Source: Escherichia phage SP27. From it: a stretch of 64,000 nt of DNA. Position numbers and translations under genes: made by a program. Below are positions 8,044-51,828 of this stretch, in pieces (position 1 is the stretch's first letter; the number at the start of each line of letters is the position of its first letter). The notes under the pieces are model-generated. The model did no database searches, was not told the DNA's origin, and saw only the letters and a list, made by a program, of their open reading frames with translations. The DNA lies in the sequence record LC494302.1; one strand, 5' to 3'.

Positions 8044-8058
8044 CCAAGAGACAATGGA

Positions 8059-9471
8059 ATGGCTAAAAGTAAAAAAACAGAAAATCATAATATCGATAAC
8101 CAAACACTAACTCTACTAGATTATAACAGTTCTGATTATGTGAATACAACATCACTAGAATATTCGATGTATACACTAGACCGTGCTATTCCTGGAATTG
8201 ATGGTCTAAAGAGTTCACAACGTAAAGCAATCTTCACATTATCTAAAATTAGTGGGGAAATTAAAACAGTATCATGTGCTGGAAAAATGATTAGTGATGG
8301 TATCTATCTTCATGGGGACACGTCAGCATCAGGAACACTTCAAAATCTAGCATCTCCAGTAGCTAACAACTATCCTCTTATTGGAAAACGTGGTGGTTTT
8401 GGTACACAAGTAAACAGTACACCAGCATCTGCTCGTTACACTTATGTTAAAAAGAATAAGAGTACTGAGATGCTTGTTTTGCGTGATGCTGATATTATAC
8501 CAATGAAAGAGAACTATGACGGGACAACATATGAACCTGTTCATTTCTTGCCTATTATTCCATTATCATTGTTTGGTAATGATAGTATGTCAGTTGGTTA
8601 TAAGAGTACAATTCTACCACATAAAATTGAAGATATTATTGATAATTGCATTCGTGCTATTGATAAAAAACCACTAAAAGAAATGACCCCATATTATGTT
8701 TCATGTGGTGCAAGTGATGTTGTGACTAAGCTTGATGAAAATAAGTATGAATTCTATGGTAAAGCTGAGGTTATTGATGCAAGCACTGTTAAAGTAACAG
8801 GCTTACCACCTAATTACAGTATTGAGAAATTCATCGAAAAACTAATCAAAATGAGTGATGATGGTGAGATTCGTGATTATGACAATGATAGTACTGATGT
8901 AATTGATATTACCATTAAACTTCCACGTGGAACGTCAGCTAAATGGACAGAGATGGATGTTATTGAGTATTTTGGCATTAACAAAAAAATGACTCAACAT
9001 TTAACTGTTCTAGGTGAAAATGGCAAAGTGAAAGTTTACGATACTACGATGGATTTGATTAAAGACTTCGTTGATTTCCGTTTCAAATATTACATCAAGC
9101 GTTATGAAAAGAAACTTGATGATTGTGCTGCTGAAGTTCGTTATAAAATTCTAATTAAAGAATGTTTCGATAATGATATGATTGCTAAGGTAAAAGGATT
9201 TGCAAACCGTGCTGAAATGGTTGAATTCGTTAAATCGTTAAATACCGAAATTGAAGCAACGGAAGAGAATATTCAAAGCATTGTAAACTTCCCTTCATAT
9301 CGCTGGACGCAAGATAATTATCAATCAGTACTACAAGATATTCAAGATAATCTTGATTTGATGGATAAGTACAATGAACTGTTATCTAATCATGACTTAA
9401 TTTGGGACATTTATAAATCTGAACTAAAAGAACTAAGAAAGATTGACTTTACTCCTAAATCAGACAATTGA
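8059..9471 (+). CDS. DNA topoisomerase II medium subunit (T4 gp52-like, GyrA-type)
   Basis: N-terminus YSMYTLDRAIPGIDGLKSSQRKAIF matches the GyrA/ParC catalytic region (Y..Y...RA.P...DGLK...R..L); adjacent to the large subunit. Confidence 0.8.
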   Translation: MAKSKKTENHNIDNQTLTLLDYNSSDYVNTTSLEYSMYTLDRAIPGIDGLKSSQRKAIFTLSKISGEIKTVSCAGKMISDGIYLHGDTSASGTLQNLASPVANNYPLIGKRGGFGTQVNSTPASARYTYVKKNKSTEMLVLRDADIIPMKENYDGTTYEPVHFLPIIPLSLFGNDSMSVGYKSTILPHKIEDIIDNCIRAIDKKPLKEMTPYYVSCGASDVVTKLDENKYEFYGKAEVIDASTVKVTGLPPNYSIEKFIEKLIKMSDDGEIRDYDNDSTDVIDITIKLPRGTSAKWTEMDVIEYFGINKKMTQHLTVLGENGKVKVYDTTMDLIKDFVDFRFKYYIKRYEKKLDDCAAEVRYKILIKECFDNDMIAKVKGFANRAEMVEFVKSLNTEIEATEENIQSIVNFPSYRWTQDNYQSVLQDIQDNLDLMDKYNELLSNHDLIWDIYKSELKELRKIDFTPKSDN

Positions 9472-9481
9472 TATATTTAAT

Positions 9482-9512
9482 GGAAGACCTTATGGGTCTT
9501 CCTTGTCCTTTA
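9482..9512 (+). terminator. terminator-like hairpin
   Basis: ggaagacc ttat gggtcttcc followed by a T-rich tract. Confidence 0.45.
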
Positions 9513-9531
9513 TATAAATAATCTATAGATA

Positions 9532-11952
9532 ATGGCAGCTTGGCTATGGAGAATTATAATGACAACTTTTACCCCACGATGGGATATAAAAGCCGATGCT
9601 CGATATATACAAGAAGGACAAGACATTCTTGTGCGTTTGAGTATCAATAAAGAAAGCACAACGGATGATAGCTATGTATTAAATGAAGATGAATACTTAG
9701 AAATGATTCTTAACATACAATGCTTGGATAGTTCAGGTGCTGTATTTGATCCAGAACCACATTATACTTTTTATGTTGGTAATGACGAAAATACTTTTGT
9801 TCCTATTTCAGATGGTACAACTGGTAATAAATTAGTAAATGGTAAGCATAAGTGTAAAATCAGCAAAAATGAATTTAACTTATCTGCAAGTACTAATAGT
9901 GAAGATGTTTATTTTATAAAAATTCATTGTAAAAATGATGGAACCTATAATAATACAGAAATTATAAATTTTTATTTACAAGCAGTAAATGTTATGTATT
10001 TTGGAAATATTTCACCAAGTGGTGTTCTAGGATTAACTGATACATCAATAACATATGATAGTCAAGAAGTTTGGGTTACACCCGGAGTTGAGATTGGTGA
10101 TGACAAAAAGCTTTATTGTATTGGTGATGTTGAGTATGGCTCCAACAGTACATTGTTCGTTCAAGGATTTGGAAGAAGACGACCTTTCATTTTGGGTACT
10201 GACATGACTACTGATATTACACCTCGTGTCTTTTTTCCAGCATATCGTTTGATTGACATGGATATTTCTGAAGTTCCAGATAAACATATTACGAATGATT
10301 TCGCAGTATTCAAGCCAGCACAATCAACATGGCCTATTTCTGGTATAAACAAAGAAGTAAAAGTTAATATTCAAAATAGAAATGGTAATTTAATTGACAC
10401 TGGAATGGTGTTCAACCCAAATGGGCAATTATTGCAAACATTTTTATATGACTCAGATGCTTGTGATGCATATTTTAAAGTTGAGATTGTTGATATATTA
10501 AGTACATACACCGAAGAAAGTGAAAGGTTTGCTATCAATCAACGATATAAAGCATATCAAATGTGGGTTTGTCCTGAAGACATAGATACTATATATTCTA
10601 TTTCAGAAAAACCACTACCCAATCATTTATATCAATTAAAAGATAATGTTGTGTATCCATACGTAATTAGTGGTGAATACGATAATGGAACAATTAAGCC
10701 CGTTTATGATAGTAGTGATTGGATTGATTTAGGATATTATGACTCTACTCTTGGTGATAATATCATTGGTATGCAAAAAATGTTCAGGGTTTTGATAAAC
10801 GCAGAAGAAGGTAATAATATAAACTTTATTACTGATAGTGATTTAGGAACCATACATGTTGGTGAATATTTTGGAGACAGTATATATCCTAAAATTGAAA
10901 CTGATAGCTCTAATCAAGTTTCGTATGTTTTAGATGGTGGTGATGACATTAGAAAGTATGGGATAGATTTGACACCAGATGGATATCTTGTAGGAACTGC
11001 ATATGCCAAAAGTATTGATTTTAGTGAAAATGATGATATTAAATTATCGTTTTATGTTAAAGCATTTAGTACTGAAGGTGGTGAAGCAAGAAAAATATTT
11101 AACCTTAAGATTGTAAGAGGATTCGGACAGAATTATTTGAGTGCACATGTATTACCTTCGGTTGCATTTGAGAGAGAATGGTTTAAATGTATAAGTACTT
11201 CATCATTCACTAATCAACTATTTTTCCGACAATCTGACAATAGATATGGTCTTCAGAAAATACCGAAGATGTTATTGAAAGAAAACTTCCTAAGTCAAAC
11301 GTATCCATATACTAACCTTTCTGATATCAAGAAAGTATTGAGAAATAGTATAATTAACCCAAATGGAACTACTATTCCAAATGGAAAATTTAAAATGGTA
11401 ATGGGTAATTATAAAATAATATCAGCACTTGACAATCAAGGTAACTTACAATATGATCTATTATATAGAGAGGTTTTACCTGAAGGTTCTTTAGTATCTG
11501 TATCCAAAAATCCACGTCAATATACTCAAATCGACAACGGTCAGCTTGGTGAATTATTTGGTTTACGACAAAATATTTTTCAGGCTATTGGTGAAGACAC
11601 AACCAACTTAGTAAAAGACCCAACCGATTTACAAAATCGTGGTCTATACGTTGATGCGATACCAAGTATCAGTGATGAAATGCTTGATACGGTCCCAAGA
11701 TTTATGAATCACCCATACATTGAAGATGGTATACAGAAAAAATTCATGCCTATCATTCCAGTTGCATATTGTCAACCAGGCAAAGGTGAAGCATTTTTCA
11801 ACACTTTACTTCAGAACAATGAACATGGTACAATGGTAGGTGTAGAGTTCGAAATCACATCGGTTGAATTCGGATACTTTTCGCATGAATCAGTGAATTA
11901 TGTTTCAGATACATTTTTGATTACATTGCAAAACAATAACATAGGAGGTTAA
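9532..11952 (+). CDS. hypothetical large protein (806 aa)
   Basis: Long uninterrupted ORF; no motif recognised. Confidence 0.55.
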   Translation: MAAWLWRIIMTTFTPRWDIKADARYIQEGQDILVRLSINKESTTDDSYVLNEDEYLEMILNIQCLDSSGAVFDPEPHYTFYVGNDENTFVPISDGTTGNKLVNGKHKCKISKNEFNLSASTNSEDVYFIKIHCKNDGTYNNTEIINFYLQAVNVMYFGNISPSGVLGLTDTSITYDSQEVWVTPGVEIGDDKKLYCIGDVEYGSNSTLFVQGFGRRRPFILGTDMTTDITPRVFFPAYRLIDMDISEVPDKHITNDFAVFKPAQSTWPISGINKEVKVNIQNRNGNLIDTGMVFNPNGQLLQTFLYDSDACDAYFKVEIVDILSTYTEESERFAINQRYKAYQMWVCPEDIDTIYSISEKPLPNHLYQLKDNVVYPYVISGEYDNGTIKPVYDSSDWIDLGYYDSTLGDNIIGMQKMFRVLINAEEGNNINFITDSDLGTIHVGEYFGDSIYPKIETDSSNQVSYVLDGGDDIRKYGIDLTPDGYLVGTAYAKSIDFSENDDIKLSFYVKAFSTEGGEARKIFNLKIVRGFGQNYLSAHVLPSVAFEREWFKCISTSSFTNQLFFRQSDNRYGLQKIPKMLLKENFLSQTYPYTNLSDIKKVLRNSIINPNGTTIPNGKFKMVMGNYKIISALDNQGNLQYDLLYREVLPEGSLVSVSKNPRQYTQIDNGQLGELFGLRQNIFQAIGEDTTNLVKDPTDLQNRGLYVDAIPSISDEMLDTVPRFMNHPYIEDGIQKKFMPIIPVAYCQPGKGEAFFNTLLQNNEHGTMVGVEFEITSVEFGYFSHESVNYVSDTFLITLQNNNIGG

Positions 11953-11953
11953 T

Positions 11954-12265
11954 ATGTTTAATCCGTTTTTTGACCCGTCTGGAATGACGGAAAAAGAACT
12001 ACAGTTAAAAATTAATGAACAGTCAATGCGTTTAACTTCTGCTCGTGCTGCTGGCCTAAGCGACATGATTATTGGTAATATGCAAACTGTCTTAAATCAA
12101 TGTTATGCTGAACTAGAACTTCGCCAAGGACAAAAAGAAAAAACTGTTTATGACGAAGAAGATCCATGTATCTTCGATATGGATTCATATCTAACTGACA
12201 ACGAAGAGGCCCAGAAGAAGAAAAATGAAAGTACAAGGAAACAGATTTATAAGTCCCAATGGTGA
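11954..12265 (+). CDS. hypothetical protein
   Basis: 103 aa ORF following GGAGG RBS. Confidence 0.45.
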   Translation: MFNPFFDPSGMTEKELQLKINEQSMRLTSARAAGLSDMIIGNMQTVLNQCYAELELRQGQKEKTVYDEEDPCIFDMDSYLTDNEEAQKKKNESTRKQIYKSQW

Positions 12266-12743
12266 TGTGAAATGTAATCTTAACGCAGTTGTTTATGCAA
12301 TCAATTGCGGTGCAGATATCCAGTACTTACAATTGCAGGAAATTGATGAACCTGAAAGGTTGAAATTCAATGATAACTGTAAAAAATTTGGCTTAGAACA
12401 ACGTATGCTGGATTATACAATTGAGCATGATAAAAATCATGAACTGTGGCGATATGATCCAGTATACGACAATATAAATCTGCGTGACTTTTTCTTACAA
12501 AAATGCACATCCGATGAAGCACGAAAACGTGTTGAGTATGAACTTGATTTATATGAATATTATAATATGACAAAGCTACTAAGATGTATGATATGGCTTG
12601 TTGATTATATGGAAGAAAATGAGATCTTTTGGGGTCTAGGTCGTGGAAGCTCTGTTGCATCATACTGTTTGTTTTTGATTGGACTACATATGGTAGATTC
12701 ATTGAAGTACGAACTTGATGTTAACGAATTTTTGAAATGGTAG
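12225..12743 (+). CDS. hypothetical protein
   Basis: 172 aa ORF; 5' end overlaps the previous ORF, so the true start is uncertain. Confidence 0.45.
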   Translation: MKVQGNRFISPNGDVKCNLNAVVYAINCGADIQYLQLQEIDEPERLKFNDNCKKFGLEQRMLDYTIEHDKNHELWRYDPVYDNINLRDFFLQKCTSDEARKRVEYELDLYEYYNMTKLLRCMIWLVDYMEENEIFWGLGRGSSVASYCLFLIGLHMVDSLKYELDVNEFLKW

Positions 12744-12761
12744 AAAAACATGTGATATAAT
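12732..12761 (+). promoter_or_regulatory. sigma70-like promoter with extended -10 (TGnTATAAT)
   Basis: ttgaaa...tgtgatataat. Confidence 0.4.
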
Positions 12762-12806
12762 GTTTATTGTAGGCTTATATCACACATACAATAAAAGGAT
12801 TTTGAT

Positions 12807-13151
12807 ATGTCTAAACATACAACTTATCGTGGTACAACAATTGACATGGATATGCTCAAGTACCAAAATCAACATCAGGTAGCATTAGGTAATGCTAATT
12901 TAAACGCACGTGGTGATAAAATCGGTTCAGGTGGAACAATTATTAAAACTCGTGAAGAGTTGATTCAAGAAAAAGAACGAGAAATGCAAATTCCTGATTA
13001 TATCCCTGAACATCAACTTCATAGTACTGAACATGGTACGGATGAAGTATGGGATGATGAGAGTTTTGAAGTTAAGCCCGAAGAACAAGAAGCTGAGGTT
13101 TCTGAAGAGAAGAAAGCACCACGTCGAGCTAGAACCAAAGATCAGGAGTAA
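12807..13151 (+). CDS. hypothetical protein
   Basis: 114 aa, acidic C-terminus; RBS AAGGA before ATG. Confidence 0.45.
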   Translation: MSKHTTYRGTTIDMDMLKYQNQHQVALGNANLNARGDKIGSGGTIIKTREELIQEKEREMQIPDYIPEHQLHSTEHGTDEVWDDESFEVKPEEQEAEVSEEKKAPRRARTKDQE

Positions 13152-38015: not shown

Positions 38016-38408
38016 ATGACTGAATCAGAACTACACGAAATGATAGATTTCATTTATGAAATGGTACAAGATAAAAATAACATCAATACAATTGCATCAG
38101 GCCCAAGACAAATTGGTAACCAAATAACATATTCTTTGTCCTTATGGTTACACCCGTGCATTAAGGTTGATTGTTTGTATTTCCGTCCTGATATTGATGC
38201 TTATTATTTTGTCAATCATGATGCATTAATGAAACCACATAATCGTCCAGTTGATGATACCTTTGTGACACACCCATTTTACCTGGCTGATTCCGAAGAA
38301 GATGAGTTTCAAAAGAACACAACGTTAAGCCCAGGTGAAATTTGCATCCCTTACGTACTTAAAGATAAAATGAATCACATCACAGAAGTTATGAAAACAT
38401 GCTGGTAG
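38016..38408 (+). CDS. FQxS-module family paralog (divergent)
   Basis: SEEDEFQKNTTL variant of the family motif. Confidence 0.45.
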   Translation: MTESELHEMIDFIYEMVQDKNNINTIASGPRQIGNQITYSLSLWLHPCIKVDCLYFRPDIDAYYFVNHDALMKPHNRPVDDTFVTHPFYLADSEEDEFQKNTTLSPGEICIPYVLKDKMNHITEVMKTCW

Positions 38409-38438
38409 ATGCAATGAAACTCTGATATAATACAAATA

Positions 38439-38675
38439 ATGATAATAAGAGGATATATGAAATTTATTGATTTTGATATTTCTAAGGCCAAAGAATTATT
38501 TGTAAGAAATGAAGTTTATGATATCATGTTACATAACGGCACTGTACAAGAAGATGTTGTGTTGTTTTCGTTTGATGGTGAAAATCTCGAAACTATATAT
38601 AAATTCAGCAACTTAGATGGTGACTTTTGGGAAACCAGTGCTGTTAAAATGTATAGAATTAAAAAGGAGCATTAA
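38439..38675 (+). CDS. hypothetical protein
   Basis: 78 aa ORF. Confidence 0.45.
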   Translation: MIIRGYMKFIDFDISKAKELFVRNEVYDIMLHNGTVQEDVVLFSFDGENLETIYKFSNLDGDFWETSAVKMYRIKKEH

Positions 38676-38676
38676 C

Positions 38677-39165
38677 ATGCCAATTCGTGGTGTACCAGAA
38701 CCATTAATGGAAGTTATTAAGCATGTTCGCATTGGAGATCGAGAAGTTAATCTTCGCCGTAATAACATTTATTACTTTAAAACTTCAGAAATGAGTTCTG
38801 TACAGATTGTCATTGGTACATCTATTAAGATTACTCGTGTACTTGATGGTAGTACTGATTTCGTTGAATATAATGTACTTACTAACAAAGTAATACACAC
38901 ATATAAATGGAGTGGGTATAAAACTATTAAGTATGAGTTTGATGTTGCTAGAACTGAAGAAGAACGATTTATGTTAAGTACTATCAATCCAGCAAACTAC
39001 CCTGACCTTGATACATTTTTGCTAATTTTAAAACTGTATAATGAAGCAAATGGGAAAGCGAAGGAGTATGATAGAATTATGTATGAACGCAAAAAAGAAC
39101 GTGCTCAGAAAAGTTATGATCTTTATGATAACCCATATGTAAAATATAATAAGGGGAGAAAATGA
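38677..39165 (+). CDS. FQxS-module family paralog
   Basis: AAGGAG RBS then ATG 38677; C-terminal TEEERFMLSTINPANYPDLD. Confidence 0.5.
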   Translation: MPIRGVPEPLMEVIKHVRIGDREVNLRRNNIYYFKTSEMSSVQIVIGTSIKITRVLDGSTDFVEYNVLTNKVIHTYKWSGYKTIKYEFDVARTEEERFMLSTINPANYPDLDTFLLILKLYNEANGKAKEYDRIMYERKKERAQKSYDLYDNPYVKYNKGRK

Positions 39166-40172: not shown

Positions 40173-40177
40173 TAAGA

Positions 40178-40513
<336 letters not shown>

Positions 40514-40514
40514 A

Positions 40515-40697
40515 ATGACACACGAAGAATGGATGTCCAAACAGCATAAAGAACATGACTGCTTTGGGAATGGCATTCGTCAGGTACATTATGATATATT
40601 AAGAGATGAAAATCTTTTCAGGTCATATGTTTTGGATACCAGAAAACCCTGGTTTATATGCGAACTGGCATTTAGAAAGTCAAATAATCAAAACTAA
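40515..40697 (+). CDS. MTHEEW mini-protein paralog 3
   Basis: MTHEEWMSKQHKEHDCFGNGIRQVHYDILRDENLFRSYVLDTRKPWFICELAFRK. Confidence 0.5.
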   Translation: MTHEEWMSKQHKEHDCFGNGIRQVHYDILRDENLFRSYVLDTRKPWFICELAFRKSNNQN

Positions 40698-40713
40698 ACA
40701 AGGAATACAAAAA

Positions 40714-40932
40714 ATGGAAACAACTTTATTTGAAGTTATTCAATCATTAAAACCTGAAGATGAGGTTCAAGTACTACTACATGGTTATCGTGTAAAAGGT
40801 ACTGTGGTTTTAGTCAATGATACAACATTGGTTATTACAGAAACAAACCCATATGATAGTAATCAACTTGCCAATATCCATATCGATATCACTGGAATTA
40901 TTGGTGTCGGTGTATCTAAAACACTTGCATAA
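40714..40932 (+). CDS. hypothetical protein
   Basis: Start placed at METTLFEV (40714) to avoid overlap with paralog 3. Confidence 0.4.
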   Translation: METTLFEVIQSLKPEDEVQVLLHGYRVKGTVVLVNDTTLVITETNPYDSNQLANIHIDITGIIGVGVSKTLA

Positions 40933-40985
40933 ATCATTAATTCATTATATAATGATTATCACTGGTTCTAGATGAGGATAATATT

Positions 40986-41258
40986 ATGCATTTTGAAAAA
41001 TTCAACGTAAATCGTAACACACGCATTGAAGTTCTTTATGAAACTCAAGACACCATTAGTATTCGTACAAGTAGTGGGGATGTATATCATGACTGTACGA
41101 TTGGCTGGGAACAGGGAAGAACGCGTAGTGCAGTATTTGATAATTATCGCTTTTATCAAGGAGACACTACGATTTGGCCTGAATACGTAGAAGATATTGC
41201 GTTTGAAGATGAACATAAAGATGAATTTATCAAATTTAATCCTCAAACTGAATCATAA
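40986..41258 (+). CDS. hypothetical protein
   Basis: 90 aa ORF. Confidence 0.45.
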   Translation: MHFEKFNVNRNTRIEVLYETQDTISIRTSSGDVYHDCTIGWEQGRTRSAVFDNYRFYQGDTTIWPEYVEDIAFEDEHKDEFIKFNPQTES

Positions 41259-41275
41259 ATAATGGGACATCACAT

Positions 41276-41388
<113 letters not shown>

Positions 41389-41395
41389 CCAAAAT

Positions 41396-41497
<102 letters not shown>

Positions 41498-41502
41498 AAA
41501 CC

Positions 41503-41663
41503 ATGACGCATGAAGAATGGATGAATGACATTAATTTTAGATATGCAGGTTTCGGTAACTGGAGAAAGTATCATTGGGAAATCATGTCAGACCCAGCAGA
41601 ATACGATAAACTTATAAACCATGAAGCGTATCCGTGGTTCTTTATTGAAATAATGGTACGAAC

Positions 41664-41667
<4 letters not shown>
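41503..41667 (+). CDS. MTHEEW mini-protein paralog 4 (54 aa)
   Basis: MTHEEWMNDINFRYAGFGNWRKYHWEIMSDPAEYDKL...; below the ORF-track cutoff. Confidence 0.45.
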
Positions 41668-41829
<162 letters not shown>

Positions 41830-41837
41830 AAAAAAAG

Positions 41838-42251
<414 letters not shown>

Positions 42252-42308
42252 CTAAATAATTCAGTACTGAGGATATTAATATGTTTAAAGATGAACGTCC
42301 AGATTTGT

Positions 42309-42346
<38 letters not shown>

Positions 42347-42421
42347 GAATTCCACAATCAGACGTATATGGTGTAAGTTACGTCGATGCAATCCAGAACA
42401 AGATCTCTGGTACTCTAGGAA

Positions 42422-42631
42422 GTGGTGAATGTTAACCTAGACGGGTTTGATAATTGGACGATAGGCAATTATTACTTGACTAGCAGGTTGAAACTAGAGG
42501 TGACAGTCCTTCACCAAACTGGAAAACCGGATGGACTTTTATTTAAAAGGGTAAGGCGTGGAAATATGTTTACAGAAGTTGCTTTTAGTAGCCTGTACGC
42601 CCCACGTCAAGGTAGCCGAAAGGCAAGTTAA
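42422..42631 (+). CDS. hypothetical 69-aa ORF (alternatively part of a non-coding RNA)
   Basis: ORF lies in an unusually GC-rich segment between promoter 42318-42346 and terminator 42636-42692; coding status uncertain. Confidence 0.3.
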   Translation: MVNVNLDGFDNWTIGNYYLTSRLKLEVTVLHQTGKPDGLLFKRVRRGNMFTEVAFSSLYAPRQGSRKAS

Positions 42632-42635
42632 AACG

Positions 42636-42692
42636 GATGGTTATAAAGCTGAATTAACAGCGGCGTTTAAAAGCGTCACCATCCATTTTTTT
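42636..42692 (+). terminator. terminator-like long hairpin
   Basis: ggatggt...accatcc (7 bp closing a 35-nt interior) followed by attttttt. Confidence 0.4.
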
Positions 42693-42708
42693 AATTAAAG
42701 TTGGTGAT

Positions 42709-43473
<765 letters not shown>

Positions 43474-43488
43474 TTCACATGATATAGG

Positions 43489-44161
<673 letters not shown>

Positions 44162-44180
44162 AGAGGTACTTCGAGTATGC

Positions 44181-44304
<124 letters not shown>

Positions 44305-44307
44305 ATA

Positions 44308-44394
<87 letters not shown>

Positions 44395-44449
44395 GACTGC
44401 CAAACAGCTTGAAGTACTTTGTAGTGCTGCACCTATGCCGACACTTGGC

Positions 44450-44550
<101 letters not shown>

Positions 44551-44562
44551 TATCTTACTTCT

Positions 44563-44652
<90 letters not shown>

Positions 44653-45643: not shown

Positions 45644-45927
45644 TGGAATTCATTGTTGCACCTGATGAACTTAAAACATTCACGTTCAGAGATAATAACA
45701 ATTATCCTTATACAAATCATTCATTGAATTCATTACATGTTATTGCAATCATTGCATCTGAATACAGGGATAATCCATGTATTGATTTTAAAACCACTGA
45801 TGGCGAATATACATGGGTGTTCCCAAAAGATAAATATAGTTATCAAGGGGCAGTAGAAATTCGTGACTCGATTCTAAAACAAATCGAAGATGGAAATACT
45901 CATCCTAAACTAAACACTCAGTACTGA
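45643..45927 (+). CDS. hypothetical protein
   Basis: 94 aa ORF; ATGA coupling. Confidence 0.45.
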   Translation: MEFIVAPDELKTFTFRDNNNYPYTNHSLNSLHVIAIIASEYRDNPCIDFKTTDGEYTWVFPKDKYSYQGAVEIRDSILKQIEDGNTHPKLNTQY

Positions 45928-45940
45928 AATCGTTTAACCC

Positions 45941-45996
45941 GATAGCTTCTAGTCAGTACTGATTCCTCCTTATGTATAGAAGCTATCACTTTTTTA
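45941..45996 (+). terminator. terminator hairpin with CAGTACTG in the loop
   Basis: gatagcttcta...tagaagctatc 11-bp stem then acttttttt. Confidence 0.5.
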
Positions 45997-46116
45997 CGTA
46001 TAATGATATTACCCTCAAATTCATTATATTCGTTACCCTCTAACAGTATCTTTTTATTCCTCTTGGATGCTGTAATTTAGAAGTTGACTTTTTAACTTCT
46101 ACTGTGTTATACTTAA

Positions 46117-46144
46117 GGCTGATTCGATGAATCGGCCTTTTTTC
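46117..46144 (+). terminator. rho-independent terminator
   Basis: ggctgattc gat gaatcggcc plus ttttttt. Confidence 0.55.
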
Positions 46145-46161
46145 TTATATAGGTGAATGCA

Positions 46162-46581
46162 ATGAGTTATTTGTTTACTTTAATTGATAAGTATGTTGAC
46201 ATTGTATACCGTCAAGTTTGTAGTGATACGTTTGAAACAAAAAACCCAATTAGAGATGGCATTTTTGATGTTGTCGTTGGATCATTTTTGAATGGATACA
46301 CAGAGACATTATACAACAGTAATAATATTTTTATTTCAGTTCAATCCAGACATACATCAGACTATGCTGTTAGCATTGATATTTGGGAAAATAATATAGA
46401 AATAGATATAACGGAACATACTAACATTCATGTTGATGATACATTTAATCAATTAACTGAAGAAATGTACTTGCAGTTGAATTTTGTACATGATCTTACA
46501 AATATCAGTTATGATACATTAAGGAAAATATGTTTTCTTAGTGGGGTGATCCGTAGTAATATGAGTAAGGATAGGAAGTGA
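46162..46581 (+). CDS. FQxS-module family paralog
   Basis: C-terminal TEEMYLQLNFVHDLTNISYDTL; AGGTG RBS. Confidence 0.5.
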   Translation: MSYLFTLIDKYVDIVYRQVCSDTFETKNPIRDGIFDVVVGSFLNGYTETLYNSNNIFISVQSRHTSDYAVSIDIWENNIEIDITEHTNIHVDDTFNQLTEEMYLQLNFVHDLTNISYDTLRKICFLSGVIRSNMSKDRK

Positions 46582-46582
46582 A

Positions 46583-46999
46583 ATGTTAAAAATTCCACCT
46601 AAGTCGTTAACACATCTTATTGAATGTGGTGTAATATTTTCCGAAGGTGATACCTCATCATACACATTGGTCGATGAACCTTATAATTTTTCATACCAAT
46701 CTTATAAAAATAATTCTAAAATTTCTTGTAGATATGCTGAAAACATATTAATAGATGTTTCGTTACATAATGTTCCGAAATTTTACATTGATATCTTTGG
46801 TGATTCTTTGACAATTCGAACATATGATTATTTTATTAATAAAGACCTCTTGAGTCTTCCAATTGAACATGATACTATAGATTCAGAGATGTTCTTTCAA
46901 CTATCAACAGTTTACGATTTACAGGGTTTAACTGTTGAGCAGTTGAATGGAATATTTGAGATTTCACGAAACATACGAAGCAGGAATAAAAATGTCTAA
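46583..46999 (+). CDS. FQxS-module family paralog
   Basis: C-terminal DSEMFFQLSTVYDLQGLTVEQLNGIF. Confidence 0.55.
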   Translation: MLKIPPKSLTHLIECGVIFSEGDTSSYTLVDEPYNFSYQSYKNNSKISCRYAENILIDVSLHNVPKFYIDIFGDSLTIRTYDYFINKDLLSLPIEHDTIDSEMFFQLSTVYDLQGLTVEQLNGIFEISRNIRSRNKNV

Positions 47000-47393
47000 T
47001 ATTTTAAATGAAAAAACAGTTGATGTTGTTATTGGTGTTCTTAACACCGCAACTTCATTTCAGAAGAAACACAGTGTTGTATACTTTGGTGAAGATTGTT
47101 GGCTGAACTATACTAATAATTCGTTTATAATTCGTGTAGAGGCTGATGATATTGGATTAACCGTTCAGGTAGGATGTGCCAAAACTGACAAACAAATCAC
47201 TGTCATTGTTGATAAACTTACGTCTTCTTTTTATGATAGTATAGATGATTGTGAACACTATAGTTCAACATTTTATGATACAGAAGAAGAACATTTTATG
47301 GAAAGTACTGTTCAAGAGTTAGCTATTCCATATAAGCTAATGAAAGCCGTGAGTGATTTAATTTTAAAATATAAAAAAAATAGGAGTTACTAA
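46992..47393 (+). CDS. FQxS-module family paralog
   Basis: C-terminal TEEEHFMESTVQELAIPY; start placed at ATG 46992. Confidence 0.5.
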   Translation: MSNILNEKTVDVVIGVLNTATSFQKKHSVVYFGEDCWLNYTNNSFIIRVEADDIGLTVQVGCAKTDKQITVIVDKLTSSFYDSIDDCEHYSSTFYDTEEEHFMESTVQELAIPYKLMKAVSDLILKYKKNRSY

Positions 47394-47839
47394 TGCAATT
47401 TAATGGTAAAGTTTCCAAAGTAGGTTTGGTTTTTGAAAACTGTGAATTTGTTGATATTGATGTAAAGAATGTTTTATGGATGCATATTGCTGATGAGAAG
47501 ACTCTTTGTAGCCGTTTTTCAAACGGACTGACAATTAGTACTGTTATCGGTGAGTTCGGTATTGCATTACGCAGCAATACACCATCGGATTTCATGGACA
47601 ACTCTACACTGTTAGACCGTTTAAAAATGCGTGACGTTACACACGTTTATCTATATGATACTAACGGTGTTGAACAGCGTTATGTAGTTGAATGGGCTAA
47701 TTATAACCTTAGTGATCAATATTCAGTAAACCAGCGTGTTCAAATCACCCCTGGTGGTAATATTGTGTTTGTTAGTTCAACTGGTAAATTAATCAGTGTA
47801 GATGATAAAAACATTGACCTATTCACAGCATATAACTAA
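47393..47839 (+). CDS. hypothetical protein
   Basis: 148 aa ORF. Confidence 0.5.
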   Translation: MQFNGKVSKVGLVFENCEFVDIDVKNVLWMHIADEKTLCSRFSNGLTISTVIGEFGIALRSNTPSDFMDNSTLLDRLKMRDVTHVYLYDTNGVEQRYVVEWANYNLSDQYSVNQRVQITPGGNIVFVSSTGKLISVDDKNIDLFTAYN

Positions 47840-47850
47840 TACGAGCTTCC

Positions 47851-48270
47851 ATGAAAACAATCAAAATTCATTTCAAAGACACTTGGACAGAAGTAAGTAC
47901 TGGTAATATTCAGGATATTTTATATAGTACTGAAACTATTCATGTTTATGATGAAGAGACTGCTTCCGAGCAGTTAAAAGTTTTGCATCGTAGTGTTGGT
48001 GTGCACACTGAATATGGCATTAAACATACTCGTGAATTACTTAATACTAATCACATTGAAACCCGTAAAGCAAACTTATCAAAAGAAGAAATGTTCGATT
48101 TCATCCTGAACCATAAAGTTCATATTGAGCCTGATGGGTCTATATGGGAGAACACTGCTGGACAAAAAGTGCTGAAAAAATATCATGTTTCAATTGATAA
48201 TGTAAAAATGTCAGGGTATGATTTGGAAGATGCAATTAATGAATATGTATCTAGGCAGAGGGCAAATTGA
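47851..48270 (+). CDS. hypothetical protein
   Basis: 139 aa ORF. Confidence 0.5.
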   Translation: MKTIKIHFKDTWTEVSTGNIQDILYSTETIHVYDEETASEQLKVLHRSVGVHTEYGIKHTRELLNTNHIETRKANLSKEEMFDFILNHKVHIEPDGSIWENTAGQKVLKKYHVSIDNVKMSGYDLEDAINEYVSRQRAN

Positions 48271-48641
48271 TGAGCTTGATAACATTTACAATTATTTGTT
48301 GCATTACTATTGTACTTTGTCGCCTGATTCATGTATACTCATATCATAAAGCGTTGCGAATCGAACAAGAGATTTACAACGAAAACCGAGAACCAGAACC
48401 AGTCAAGAAGCCACCATCACCTTATGGGTTGAAACGTGAGATGCATTCTCAAAGTAAAAAGTGGGGTTATGCAATTACTAAAAATGGCTACATCTATACT
48501 GCAAGTAATGGTTATTTTCAAATTCACCACGAATTAGAAGTGGCAGTTCAAATTTTGTGGGAGATGGAGGACATTGGTGGTTATGAGCGTACTAAGTTTG
48601 AATTCATATCAAATGATCCAGGAACTTCACGAGAAACATGA
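48267..48641 (+). CDS. membrane-anchored protein
   Basis: N-terminal LITFTIICCITIVLC TM helix. Confidence 0.5.
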   Translation: MMSLITFTIICCITIVLCRLIHVYSYHKALRIEQEIYNENREPEPVKKPPSPYGLKREMHSQSKKWGYAITKNGYIYTASNGYFQIHHELEVAVQILWEMEDIGGYERTKFEFISNDPGTSRET

Positions 48642-48675
48642 TATAATTGTTGATGTGGAGAAGAAGGAAGTCGTT

Positions 48676-48786
48676 ATGAAAAAGCAAGCATATAGAATTT
48701 TAGAAGACTTCCATCTAAAAGCATTTATAATGAAGTTCTGTACAGATGAACATCTTACCGGACGAGTAATACGTAAGGAGTTGTAA
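48676..48786 (+). CDS. small hypothetical protein
   Basis: AAGGAAG RBS then ATG 48676; the longer alternative (from 48574) overlaps the upstream gene. Confidence 0.3.
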   Translation: MKKQAYRILEDFHLKAFIMKFCTDEHLTGRVIRKEL

Positions 48787-49128
48787 ATGAACTTAAGTTC
48801 AACAATTCAGTACTTGAGCAGTAACTTCGAGAAAATTATTTCTCGCGGTGGGATGATTGTACACCCAGAAACAGAGGAAATGTACATCATTGGATTTGAT
48901 AAAAATTCTTATGATCAAGTACTTGTAATTTCCAAGTTAGAAAGTTATAATGAAGTTGTTCAGTTTTGCTGTACCGAATTTGGTATCTATATTAAAGACG
49001 CTGAAACTAATACAATTTCGCATTATTTTTACCACACACTGATGGGTACTAAAGACTTCGGCTTGAAGTTCGATGATTTAGTACAATGTCACTATATGTT
49101 TAAAACCTTCCCAGCTAGTGGGCATTAA
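48787..49128 (+). CDS. hypothetical protein
   Basis: 113 aa ORF. Confidence 0.5.
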   Translation: MNLSSTIQYLSSNFEKIISRGGMIVHPETEEMYIIGFDKNSYDQVLVISKLESYNEVVQFCCTEFGIYIKDAETNTISHYFYHTLMGTKDFGLKFDDLVQCHYMFKTFPASGH

Positions 49129-49141
49129 GGAGTATATCAAT

Positions 49142-49930
49142 ATGAGCAACATTTTCTTCAAAACTATTTCTTTCAAAAAAGCATCTTACTCCTACGCCTA
49201 CGTTGATGGTAAAGTGCTTAATATTGTACTGGATGGTGTTGACGTACCAGTTGAATTTAAAACACATGAAGAAGCAGTTGAAGGTGCTAAAGAATTGAAT
49301 TCAATTCTTAATGGTGAAGTAAGTCAAAAACAACATGTAAAATCTGATTTAGATGTACTTTTGGAAAAAATCAAAACTGGTGAAGTATTAGAAATTTTAG
49401 ACAACTGTAATGAAAAACTTCGTAATGTAGTTAATAATGTTCGTGACCAGATTCAAGAAAAAGCACTAGAGCAAGCATTCAAACATGTATCCAAGAATGC
49501 TGAATCTCGTATTGACGGTATGGTTAAAAATCTTGATGATGTACTATCTCATCTCTTTACTAAAGAATACGAACAAGAAGTTGAAGAAGAACCAGTAAAA
49601 GAAACTAAAAAAGAAAAACGTAGCTTTGGCTCAGGTGATGATGTGTTTGGTTTTACGAATGTCAGAACAAGTGCAGATGAACCAAAAGAAATTAGTGAGA
49701 TGCTCATTGGTGACATGACAACTAAGCAGCTTCGTAATGAAATTGACAAGTTTGTAACTAGTTGTATCAAATCAGAACGTGCACAAAGTATGTTTAAAAG
49801 CATTAGTGAGAACTTTGGTCCAGAAGCAACTGAGCAGGCACTAACTGCATTTAAAGAATTGATTTATAATGTAGCCATTAGCAATCCAGATAAAACACTT
49901 GAAGAAGTTCTACGTGACAATTTCAAATAA
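49142..49930 (+). CDS. hypothetical protein
   Basis: TAAGGAG RBS then ATG 49142; acidic, Lys/Glu-rich. Confidence 0.5.
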   Translation: MSNIFFKTISFKKASYSYAYVDGKVLNIVLDGVDVPVEFKTHEEAVEGAKELNSILNGEVSQKQHVKSDLDVLLEKIKTGEVLEILDNCNEKLRNVVNNVRDQIQEKALEQAFKHVSKNAESRIDGMVKNLDDVLSHLFTKEYEQEVEEEPVKETKKEKRSFGSGDDVFGFTNVRTSADEPKEISEMLIGDMTTKQLRNEIDKFVTSCIKSERAQSMFKSISENFGPEATEQALTAFKELIYNVAISNPDKTLEEVLRDNFK

Positions 49931-49942
49931 TTAGATAAAATT

Positions 49943-49972
49943 AAAGCCACTACAATGTAGTGGCTTTTTTTA
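49943..49972. terminator. bidirectional terminator between convergent genes
   Basis: aaagccacta caatg tagtggcttttttt; A-run on one side, T-run on the other. Confidence 0.6.
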
Positions 49973-51127
49973 TTATGCGTTGTAACCAACTATTACGACT
50001 GAGCAGTCAAGCGGTTCTACTACTTTAAGAATTACATTATCATCTTCATCCACTTGTATTTCACTATGAACTACATGATTGTCTGAAGAATATAATTGAA
50101 CTTGTGGTAGTGCTTTACCATGTTCAGTTACTGGAACTGAGATAGAGTACATAGAGTCTTCACCGAGAACCCACTCACTTAAAGTATATTCTTTATGGAA
50201 AGGAGTAGTATGCAGTGTTTTTCCGATTATACTCAAAGAAACAGGTAAATTATCAGTTTGATACACAGTAATATTACCTTCTGCGTCTACAGAAAGATCT
50301 ACACCAACTTGATATAAGTCACCACTGTATGCTTGAAGTGCTAAGTACTGTCCACGATCATGAACATCAAATGGAACAACCGCAGAAAATACACCTTCCG
50401 AAACAGGTTCAAATTGGGATAGAAGAACTGATGTAACAAAATCAATATCCTCACCACTTTCAAGAACATCAAATTCCACCACTTTAGTGTTATAATATGG
50501 AGAAGTGAGCGTAGCAGTACCTTTCCCTGATTGTGTGATAACATCAACTGGAATTGTAAATGCATCATTAACAAATTGGGTAGTAAAGTATTCTGTCCCG
50601 TCTGGTAATACGATTGTTATTACCATACCGTTAGTATCAATTTCTGAACCAGTGTTGAATAATTTACCACTAATTGAGTCATTACCAACAAATACTGGTG
50701 AAATGAGAATATTATCTATATCACGATCTATAATACCACATTCAGGTGTATACATATGATACAAGGTTTGTGAACTACCTAAAATTGTTTTATGTAGCAT
50801 AAATTTATATACAAATCCAGTATCAGTTTCTTGTGGCTCTTCAGAATATCCACGAACAAAGAAACAATTTTTATTAATTTCACTTAATAGTTGGTCATTA
50901 GTTTTATTGTAATTTAATATATAACCTTTATTATCTTTAGTTGTTATTTGTACTTTACGATATATTATATTAGTTCTTGGATCAACTAAATCATATAATC
51001 TATGGCTTCTTTGGCGATAGATTCTAATATTTTTTAGTCTAGTTCCATCGTTGAGGATTGCACCATCAACAACATAACCACATTCACCAAACTTATAGCG
51101 TCCAGCCGCAGCAATTGACCTTGACAT
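49973..51127 (-). CDS. hypothetical protein (384 aa); only minus-strand gene in the window
   Basis: Long minus-strand ORF converging on a bidirectional terminator at 49943-49972; rich in Thr/Ser/Val/Gly, beta-rich-looking. Confidence 0.55.
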   Translation of the reverse strand: MSRSIAAAGRYKFGECGYVVDGAILNDGTRLKNIRIYRQRSHRLYDLVDPRTNIIYRKVQITTKDNKGYILNYNKTNDQLLSEINKNCFFVRGYSEEPQETDTGFVYKFMLHKTILGSSQTLYHMYTPECGIIDRDIDNILISPVFVGNDSISGKLFNTGSEIDTNGMVITIVLPDGTEYFTTQFVNDAFTIPVDVITQSGKGTATLTSPYYNTKVVEFDVLESGEDIDFVTSVLLSQFEPVSEGVFSAVVPFDVHDRGQYLALQAYSGDLYQVGVDLSVDAEGNITVYQTDNLPVSLSIIGKTLHTTPFHKEYTLSEWVLGEDSMYSISVPVTEHGKALPQVQLYSSDNHVVHSEIQVDEDDNVILKVVEPLDCSVVIVGYNA

Positions 51128-51187
51128 TTATCCCTCCATTGGTATAATTATTATAACGTATTTATTATGCATATCCAAAAAATGAGC

Positions 51188-51216
51188 TTGACTGGTGTAT
51201 GATTTGGTGTTATCAT
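51188..51216 (+). promoter_or_regulatory. sigma70-like promoter (TTGACT-N17-TATCAT)
   Basis: ttgactggtgtatgatttggtgttatcat. Confidence 0.4.
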
Positions 51217-51243: not shown

Positions 51244-51828
51244 ATGAATGTTATTGATAATAGATTAGTACTGAAAAATGGAAAAATGACTGTTAAGTTA
51301 TATAAAGATGAAGCTGATTCTTTTATGGCAAAAGCGATTGAAAAATCAGAACGATATAAACTTTTGGCTCCAGCAAGTAAATCGCCATATGGTTTTAATC
51401 ATGCACATAGTCATTTTGTTGGTATGGTGTGTGAGCACGCATCTTTAGTACTTTTTAATGAAATTGAAAACAATACTGGTATTAAACTTAATATCGATCC
51501 AGCATTCCAAAATGAAGCACGTGACGGTGAATGTGATATTAAGGTAAACAACCTTCGTATTGAAGTAAAAGGTATCAAGTATAAATCATGGACTGACTTT
51601 GGACCATGTGTTAGTACTCGACAGTTAAAAAATATCCAGAAAAAAGCTGACGTAATACTATGGGTATTGTATAATGAGAAAAAACAAGAGTTCACGTTTG
51701 AGGGATTCAACTATGTAAAAGATATTAGTTCTATCCCAGTTATCCTCACTGGTGTACCAGGGCGACCAATGATTGAAAATCACCCAGTACTCGGTATTAT
51801 GAAACCACTACAGGAGTTACCATTGTGA
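51244..51828 (+). CDS. hypothetical protein
   Basis: 194 aa ORF after promoter 51188-51216. Confidence 0.5.
   Translation: MNVIDNRLVLKNGKMTVKLYKDEADSFMAKAIEKSERYKLLAPASKSPYGFNHAHSHFVGMVCEHASLVLFNEIENNTGIKLNIDPAFQNEARDGECDIKVNNLRIEVKGIKYKSWTDFGPCVSTRQLKNIQKKADVILWVLYNEKKQEFTFEGFNYVKDISSIPVILTGVPGRPMIENHPVLGIMKPLQELPL

Follow-up and report, generated by a model that had tools for sequence, protein, structure and literature searches.

We analysed a 64 000-nt window (the term is used below for this whole stretch of DNA) from Escherichia phage SP27 (LC494302.1), with emphasis on the one gene at 49973..51127 that runs against its surroundings. Over 3.5 kb round this gene, the sequence agrees at 99.9% identity with Escherichia phages vB_EcoM_E9.1 and JP4, and at 99.1–99.8% with 121Q, PBECO4, phAPEC6, G17 and other members of Asteriusvirus, the genus of 121Q/PBECO4-type jumbo coliphages, which are myoviruses with genomes of ~350 kb. 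The window has a G+C content of 33% and a GC skew that is positive all along, being flattened solely in the 50–52 kb bin, which is the bin that holds the inverted gene.

Gene layout at the locus

The inverted gene (49973..51127, minus strand; ATG at 51127, TAA at 49973–49975) encodes a virion protein of 384 aa and is preceded on its own strand by a Shine–Dalgarno sequence, GGAGG, 5 nt before the ATG (51133..51137). It corresponds to 121Q gp155, labelled 'virion structural protein, Ig-domain' in RefSeq, and to phAPEC6 gp077, with CBB_496 as orthologue in phage CBB; the product matches phrog_10468 with E = 1e-183. A six-frame scan for ORFs of at least 80 aa returned 99 on the plus strand, covering 82% of the window, and 19 on the minus strand, of which the 18 besides this gene are all 131 aa or shorter. 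The deposited annotation of phAPEC6 agrees independently, gp077 being the sole gene on the opposite strand between gp011c and gp171c (~85 kb). An earlier sequence-only reading of this DNA, which called the gene the only convincing minus-strand ORF in 64 kb, was thus correct.

The convergent neighbour (49142..49930, plus strand) is the homologue of 121Q gp154 and phAPEC6 gp078c, a virion protein by mass spectrometry (MS) that belongs to phrog_14991, and is the final gene of the upstream plus-strand unit. Across 45900–49200, a span reaching >3 kb upstream of this neighbour, its strand holds no TAAATA that could serve as a late motif; that an MS-detected virion protein ends an early-type unit may reflect early synthesis followed by packaging, or read-through transcription. 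On the other side, the divergent neighbour (51244..51828, plus strand; 121Q gp156, 194 aa) opens the downstream early unit and is a partner kept in all relatives. The early region also carries, probably at about 55.9–56.9 kb of the window (plus strand), a gene for an RpoD-type sigma factor of the sigma-70 family (121Q gene 167, L001 10925–11501; phAPEC6 gp066c), additional to the gp55-like late sigma factor described below.

Virion presence and domain architecture of the protein

The phAPEC6 protein gp077 (42.88 kDa) was detected in purified virions with 10 unique peptides and 37.8% coverage (PMC7247149), and CBB_496 was likewise found in purified virions with four peptides and 17.5% coverage. 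The suggestion that the protein could be structural, for which virion proteomics had been proposed as a check, is therefore borne out by published MS data on particles from two genera. The product was also described as beta-rich-looking, and its AlphaFold2 model is indeed essentially all-beta (mean pLDDT 79.7). Residues 1–135 (50723..51127, minus strand) form an N-terminal domain, the best conserved part of the protein, which we propose to be a virion-attachment module. The remainder (49976..50719, minus strand) is modelled as three tandem Ig-like beta-sandwich domains (residues ~137–225, 226–305 and 306–384), mostly with pLDDT values of 85–96.

Searches of Pfam, NCBIfam and PDB sequences with the single sequence and with profiles gave nothing significant. 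Foldseek placed Bap, filamin Ig 3–5, NCAM and DIP Ig arrays at the top of the PDB matches, all of them generic Ig arrays, while the top non-orthologous matches among viral models were Yersinia jumbo-phage proteins named 'possible surface protein … cell adhesion domain'. Ig-like domains 2 and 3 align to one another (second HSP). Three beta-sandwiches with pLDDT >85, Foldseek matches to Ig arrays and detection in virions by MS together describe a virion protein with tandem Ig-like domains. Identity to six distant homologues falls from 0.51 in the N-domain to 0.41, 0.36 and 0.27 in Ig-like domains 1, 2 and 3 respectively, the pattern expected if a fixed anchor carries an exposed, fast-evolving tip. 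The Ig-like region (residues 219–338) also gave a tblastn match (E = 1.4e-6) to phAPEC6 188371–188766 (L007 ~38371–38766), a place without an annotated gene between gp253 and gp256 that may hold an unannotated or degraded Ig-domain gene.

A probable late-promoter element upstream of the gene

The element AATAAATA (51159..51166, minus strand, read 51166->51159) precedes the ATG by 38 nt and is of the T4 late-promoter type, matching the T4 sequence TATAAATA at 7/8 positions. Besides the ATAAATA in this element, the window has just one other on its minus strand. Transcription from the element is predicted to start at ~51152–51154.

Motif statistics were obtained from phAPEC6, for which 250 kb (later 285 kb) were assembled and 62 virion proteins have been identified by ESI-MS/MS (PMC7247149). 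ATAAATA occurred in sense at −70 to −20 in 19/58 MS-detected virion genes versus 11 of the 290 remaining gene-like ORFs (odds ratio 12.4, Fisher p = 1.4e-9), and several of the latter 11 sit within or beside morphogenesis modules; no antisense copy was found at −70 to −20 of phAPEC6 genes. The 19 include the genes of the major head protein (at −52), the tail sheath (at −57) and gp077 itself (at −38). Both strands of the 250 kb together contain just 49 copies. A profile of the 19 virion-gene sites shows seven invariant bases and no preference at the base that precedes them; since the phage's own consensus is N-ATAAATA, AATAAATA fits it in full rather than as a degenerate version. An A present ~5 nt downstream in 15/19 sites is probably the transcription start point.

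Within the window the motif is depleted, with 12 copies observed against 43.6 +/- 6.9 expected from dinucleotide shuffles. Four of the 12 lie 36–45 nt ahead of a Shine–Dalgarno sequence and ATG, and three of these four genes encode MS-detected virion proteins. The homologues of gp158c and gp167c are virion genes that carry the late motif in the same orientation as the early genes, so inversion is no general requirement for such genes.

Buttimer et al. predicted an ATAAATA late promoter ahead of 35 structural genes in CBB, and their Table S7 lists Porf_496, the predicted late promoter of this gene's orthologue; ATAAATA is also the 'promoter 3' predicted for the Rak2-like phages CBB and GAP32. 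The papers on phAPEC6, the 121Q capsid, Sharanji, fEgEco12 and G17 report neither promoters nor transcripts for Asteriusvirus, and no RNA-seq or 5'-end data for the genus were found in the literature searched. The sequence-only reading had pointed to a T4-late-promoter-like element upstream of the gene and proposed a motif search across the genome. The element is present, and its reading as a late promoter is supported by the enrichment at virion genes in phAPEC6, the depletion elsewhere in the window, the TAAATA core conserved in relatives, Porf_496 and a sigma factor of the gp55 family.

Three of the ATAAATA copies in the window, without a downstream ORF, directly precede tRNA genes on the plus strand (40177–44642), at 40177 (tRNA-Gly 40200), 41255 (tRNA-Ser 41302) and 44491 (tRNA-Thr 44569), so late-type promoters may drive this tRNA cluster of six genes, which includes an unusual tRNA-Ser with anticodon ACT. 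A different upstream block, nearly identical between copies, precedes the RCC1-repeat virion genes gp005, gp006, gp007 and gp010 of phAPEC6 (L004 ~8050–13020) and consists of a GCCAGTAC hairpin followed by GTATTAAATATAGTATAATGAATAAAGGAGG, which suggests a separate promoter class or duplicated cassettes.

A candidate late sigma factor

phAPEC6 gp237c (279 aa) is annotated as 'sigma factor for late transcription' and matches phrog_234, 'late sigma transcription factor', with E = 8e-18. A tblastn search matched it to gp55 genes from several hundred (>450) T4-like cyanophages, the best at ~4e-8, the resemblance being confined to the C-terminal half. A Pfam scan gave no match and phmmer matched no PDB chain, hence not T4 gp55 itself, so the link to gp55 is remote. 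The PHROG profile and the cyanophage matches nevertheless point to gp237c as a distant member of the gp55 family. The authors of the CBB study found no gp33 or gp45 homologues in CBB.

A two-sided hairpin between the convergent genes

The 42-nt gap between the convergent genes is filled by a hairpin common to both, predicted to be a bidirectional intrinsic terminator (49943..49971, both strands) and composed of an A-run, GCCACTAC, an AAT loop, GTAGTGGC and T7. The hairpin proper (49943–49967) has an 11-bp stem and a 3-nt loop, with a GC core at 49946–49953/49957–49964, and folds with −18.3 kcal/mol on the plus strand (z = −5.0) and −16.6 kcal/mol on the minus strand (z = −5.5); none of 200 shuffled sequences folded equally well. 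Downstream of the hairpin come T7 on the plus strand and TTTAATTTT (six T in eight) on the minus strand. Termination of the late transcript may be leaky because of this interruption of the gene-strand T-run. The annotation of G17 marks the hairpin as a terminator. The gene had been described as flanked by a bidirectional terminator; the two-sided hairpin is present, but 'flanked' overstates the case, as only the 3' end of the gene has it.

A hairpin counted as two-sided if at least six of the 8 nt preceding the GC core were A and at least six of the 8 nt following it were T. Such hairpins were found at 5/7 convergent versus 2/39 co-directional junctions in 285 kb of phAPEC6 (p = 3e-4), co-directional terminators having a run on one side only. 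The two-sided design is thus specific to places where transcription units meet head-on.

Predicted early promoters on the divergent side

On the opposite strand, the predicted early promoter P1 (51121..51148, plus strand) is a perfect TTGACA-N16-TG-n-TATAAT consensus match; codons 1–2 (ATG TCA A) of the minus-strand gene, read in reverse complement, supply its −35 hexamer. A second sigma-70-like site, P2 (TTGACT-N17-TATCAT, with TG; 51188..51216, plus strand), lies before the divergent gene. Perfect TTGACA-N16–18-TATAAT sites number 11 in the window against 0.19 expected, all on the plus strand and spanning 1841 to 63615, an unusually dense set of full-consensus host promoters that marks the region as one of early genes read by the host polymerase. 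The predicted starts of P1 (~51155, rightwards) and of the late promoter (~51153, leftwards) nearly coincide, so the two polymerase footprints must overlap. From this overlap we infer a mutually exclusive early/late switch.

Conservation in relatives

Among 5.8 billion proteins, just ~15 clusters are homologous to the gene product. Five metagenomic or genomic lineages (L009–L013; 38–52% identity) keep the three-gene layout, in which the lone inverted gene stands between a convergent gene of 274–326 aa and a divergent one of ~190 aa. The inverted orientation is also kept in CBB, which belongs to another genus (orthologue identity 38%) and in which the gene sits within what the CBB authors call the early region.

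The flanking signals follow the genes. A TAAATA core occurs at −36 to −41 in six lineages, as ATAAATA in three and with G or C before TAAATA in the other three, forms that match the published variants of CBB; CBB itself has ATAAATA at −31 and an equivalent hairpin. The convergent gap measures 31–46 nt in six lineages and in all of them contains a GC hairpin with an A-run on one side and a T-run on the other, the stem sequence varying among most lineages while the structure is kept (L010 and L013 share GGCGACC). Sigma-70-like promoters in the relatives point the opposite way from the inverted gene, with a P1-like site at the same position in L011 and L012 and a second site similar to P2 in L011. 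The proposal that the gene is a separately regulated unit agrees with this conserved layout, in which a promoter-like element and a terminator of its own lie between two plus-strand early units.

A family of proteins sharing the N-terminal domain

The N-domain alone constitutes phAPEC6 gp347 (125 aa, 33% identity, E = 1e-15), encoded at 260.7 kb of that genome (L016 10690–11067, flanks 10465–11110); no second copy of the domain was found in the first 250 kb. gp347 is an abundant virion protein (eight peptides, 75% coverage; PMC7247149). Combined with one Big_2 domain, the N-domain forms RaK2 gp496 (F403_gp039), for which the RaK2 authors suggested a role in host interaction, and CBB_112, for which the CBB paper predicts an ATAAATA promoter, Porf_112. 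The genes for gp347 and RaK2 gp496 each stand alone in inverted orientation, with a hairpin between A- and T-runs downstream. That of gp347 lies among gp308c–gp395c and has the terminator A6-GGAGCC-TTGT-GGCTCC-T7; upstream, its nearest perfect TATAAATA is ~195 nt before the ATG, with only CAAATATA at ~−41.

In RaK2, K64-1 and CBB, the N-domain paralogues bear the label 'major tail protein', which would make the protein studied here a tail-tube component. This reading draws on the RefSeq product names of RaK2 F403_gp039, K64-1 and CBB_112, and we regard it as quite improbable. The N-domain showed neither a structural relative among solved structures nor a tail-tube (gp19/Hcp-like) fold, so the inherited label is unsupported.

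A proposed self-contained late unit within the early region

Taken together, the data favour a reading to which we assign a probability of roughly 0.78, namely that the gene is a self-contained late transcription unit placed in reverse between two early units of Asteriusvirus that are driven by host sigma-70. Early in infection, host RNA polymerase would start rightwards from P1 and P2, and early transcription arriving from the left would halt at the hairpin, so that the gene would stay silent and would not be run over. In the late phase, polymerase with the gp55-like sigma factor of the phage would start leftwards at ~51153 and produce a monocistronic mRNA of ~1.2 kb ending at the same hairpin. 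With P1 and the late promoter on the same DNA, occupancy of the two would be mutually exclusive, which could sharpen the early-to-late switch. In the particle, the N-domain would anchor the protein while the Ig-like domains project outward as an accessory adhesion or decoration arm on head or tail.

The chief competing account holds that host sigma-70 polymerase transcribes the gene early or constitutively from a minus-strand TGGATA-N16-TATAAT (51177->51150), with AATAAATA merely AT-rich. That site matches the consensus at 10/12 positions with a perfect −10 hexamer, and CBB too has TATAAT 3 nt past its ATAAATA; yet sigma-70 matches of at least 9/12 are at background in this AT-rich DNA (24 found versus 19.2 +/- 3.7 expected), and all 11 perfect sites of the window are on the other strand. 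We rejected this account as unlikely, given the background count and the hexamers: L009–L013 keep TAAATA but not the −35 or the TATAAT. The rarity of ATAAATA, its strong tie to virion genes and the nature of the product as a virion protein also speak against it.

A gene standing alone between oppositely oriented neighbours, with a promoter and a terminator of its own, also has the look of a moron, or mobile insertion, acquired recently and inverted by accident, without regulatory meaning. This is very improbable and was likewise rejected, since the three-gene arrangement is kept in the five lineages at 38–52% identity (and the inversion in CBB) and the GC content is that of the surroundings, the flattened skew being expected for any inverted gene. 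The paralogue family, moreover, is inverted in the same manner at a second locus, and we saw no clean empty site in close relatives, no flanking repeats and no recombinase.

Beyond the late-unit reading itself, a wider proposal can be made, which we offer tentatively as possible rather than probable. The N-domain would be a new virion-attachment module of Rak2-like jumbo phages (~125–135 aa; bare, with one Big_2 or with three Ig-like domains), whose genes are consistently lone inverted late cassettes in early arrays. At the present locus, the superposition of the late promoter on a consensus early sigma-70 promoter would then act as a hard-wired, mutually exclusive toggle.

Comparison with known systems

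Part of this picture was already in databases and papers, namely the Ig-domain virion protein, the terminator and the late promoter (predicted in CBB). New are the statistical case for ATAAATA as a late motif of Asteriusvirus, the association of two-sided terminators with convergent junctions, the overlapping early and late promoters, and the N-domain family with its recurring inverted-cassette layout. For annotation, the work yields a rule for late promoters in Asteriusvirus (N-ATAAATA 35–60 nt ahead of the ATG) and one for recognizing two-way terminators, and shows the 'major tail protein' label on the paralogues to be unsupported. The locus also illustrates neatly how a phage of 350 kb keeps a late virion gene insulated within an early region.

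Like the gp55-dependent late units of T4, the unit described here has a lone AT-rich element of the −10 type, without a −35, some tens of nucleotides before late or virion genes, in a phage that encodes a gp55-family sigma factor. It differs in that the first base is free (N-ATAAATA), some relatives having C or G before TAAATA, and in that the sigma factor is a protein of 279 aa that is gp55-like only in its C-terminal half. Known bidirectional rho-independent terminators share the GC-rich hairpin between an A-run and a T-run and the short convergent gap; here the T-run of the gene strand is interrupted (TTTAATTTT), while several relatives have symmetrical runs.

RaK2 gp496, CBB_112 and gp347 resemble the present protein in their N-domain, their presence in virions, their lone inverted genes and the A/T-run hairpin downstream. 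They differ in having zero Ig-like domains or one Big_2 domain in place of three Ig-like domains, and in residing at another conserved site, near a ClpP-like protease gene.

Among decoration proteins, T4 Hoc (~40 kDa) consists of three Ig-like domains and a capsid-binding domain, and T5 pb10 of an N-terminal capsid-binding domain and a C-terminal Ig-like domain. The present protein is similar in size and appears to share with them a conserved attachment domain with an outward, variable Ig-like array (the Ig domains being predicted here), presence in the virion and, as we infer, late expression; with pb10 it also shares the N-terminal polarity of the anchor. Neither in sequence nor in fold does the anchor domain itself detectably resemble Hoc, pb10 or any solved protein, and homology of the anchors is not supported. 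Maps of the 121Q and phAPEC6 capsid and tail contain decoration densities and fibres without an assigned protein, and the small family of Ig-bearing surface proteins provides candidates for the head and tail decorations and 'hairs' on 121Q, phAPEC6 and CBB. Overall, the organization is tidy but ordinary for a phage and leaves current understanding in place: a virion-protein gene set backwards among early genes, with a T4-style late promoter and a two-way terminator.
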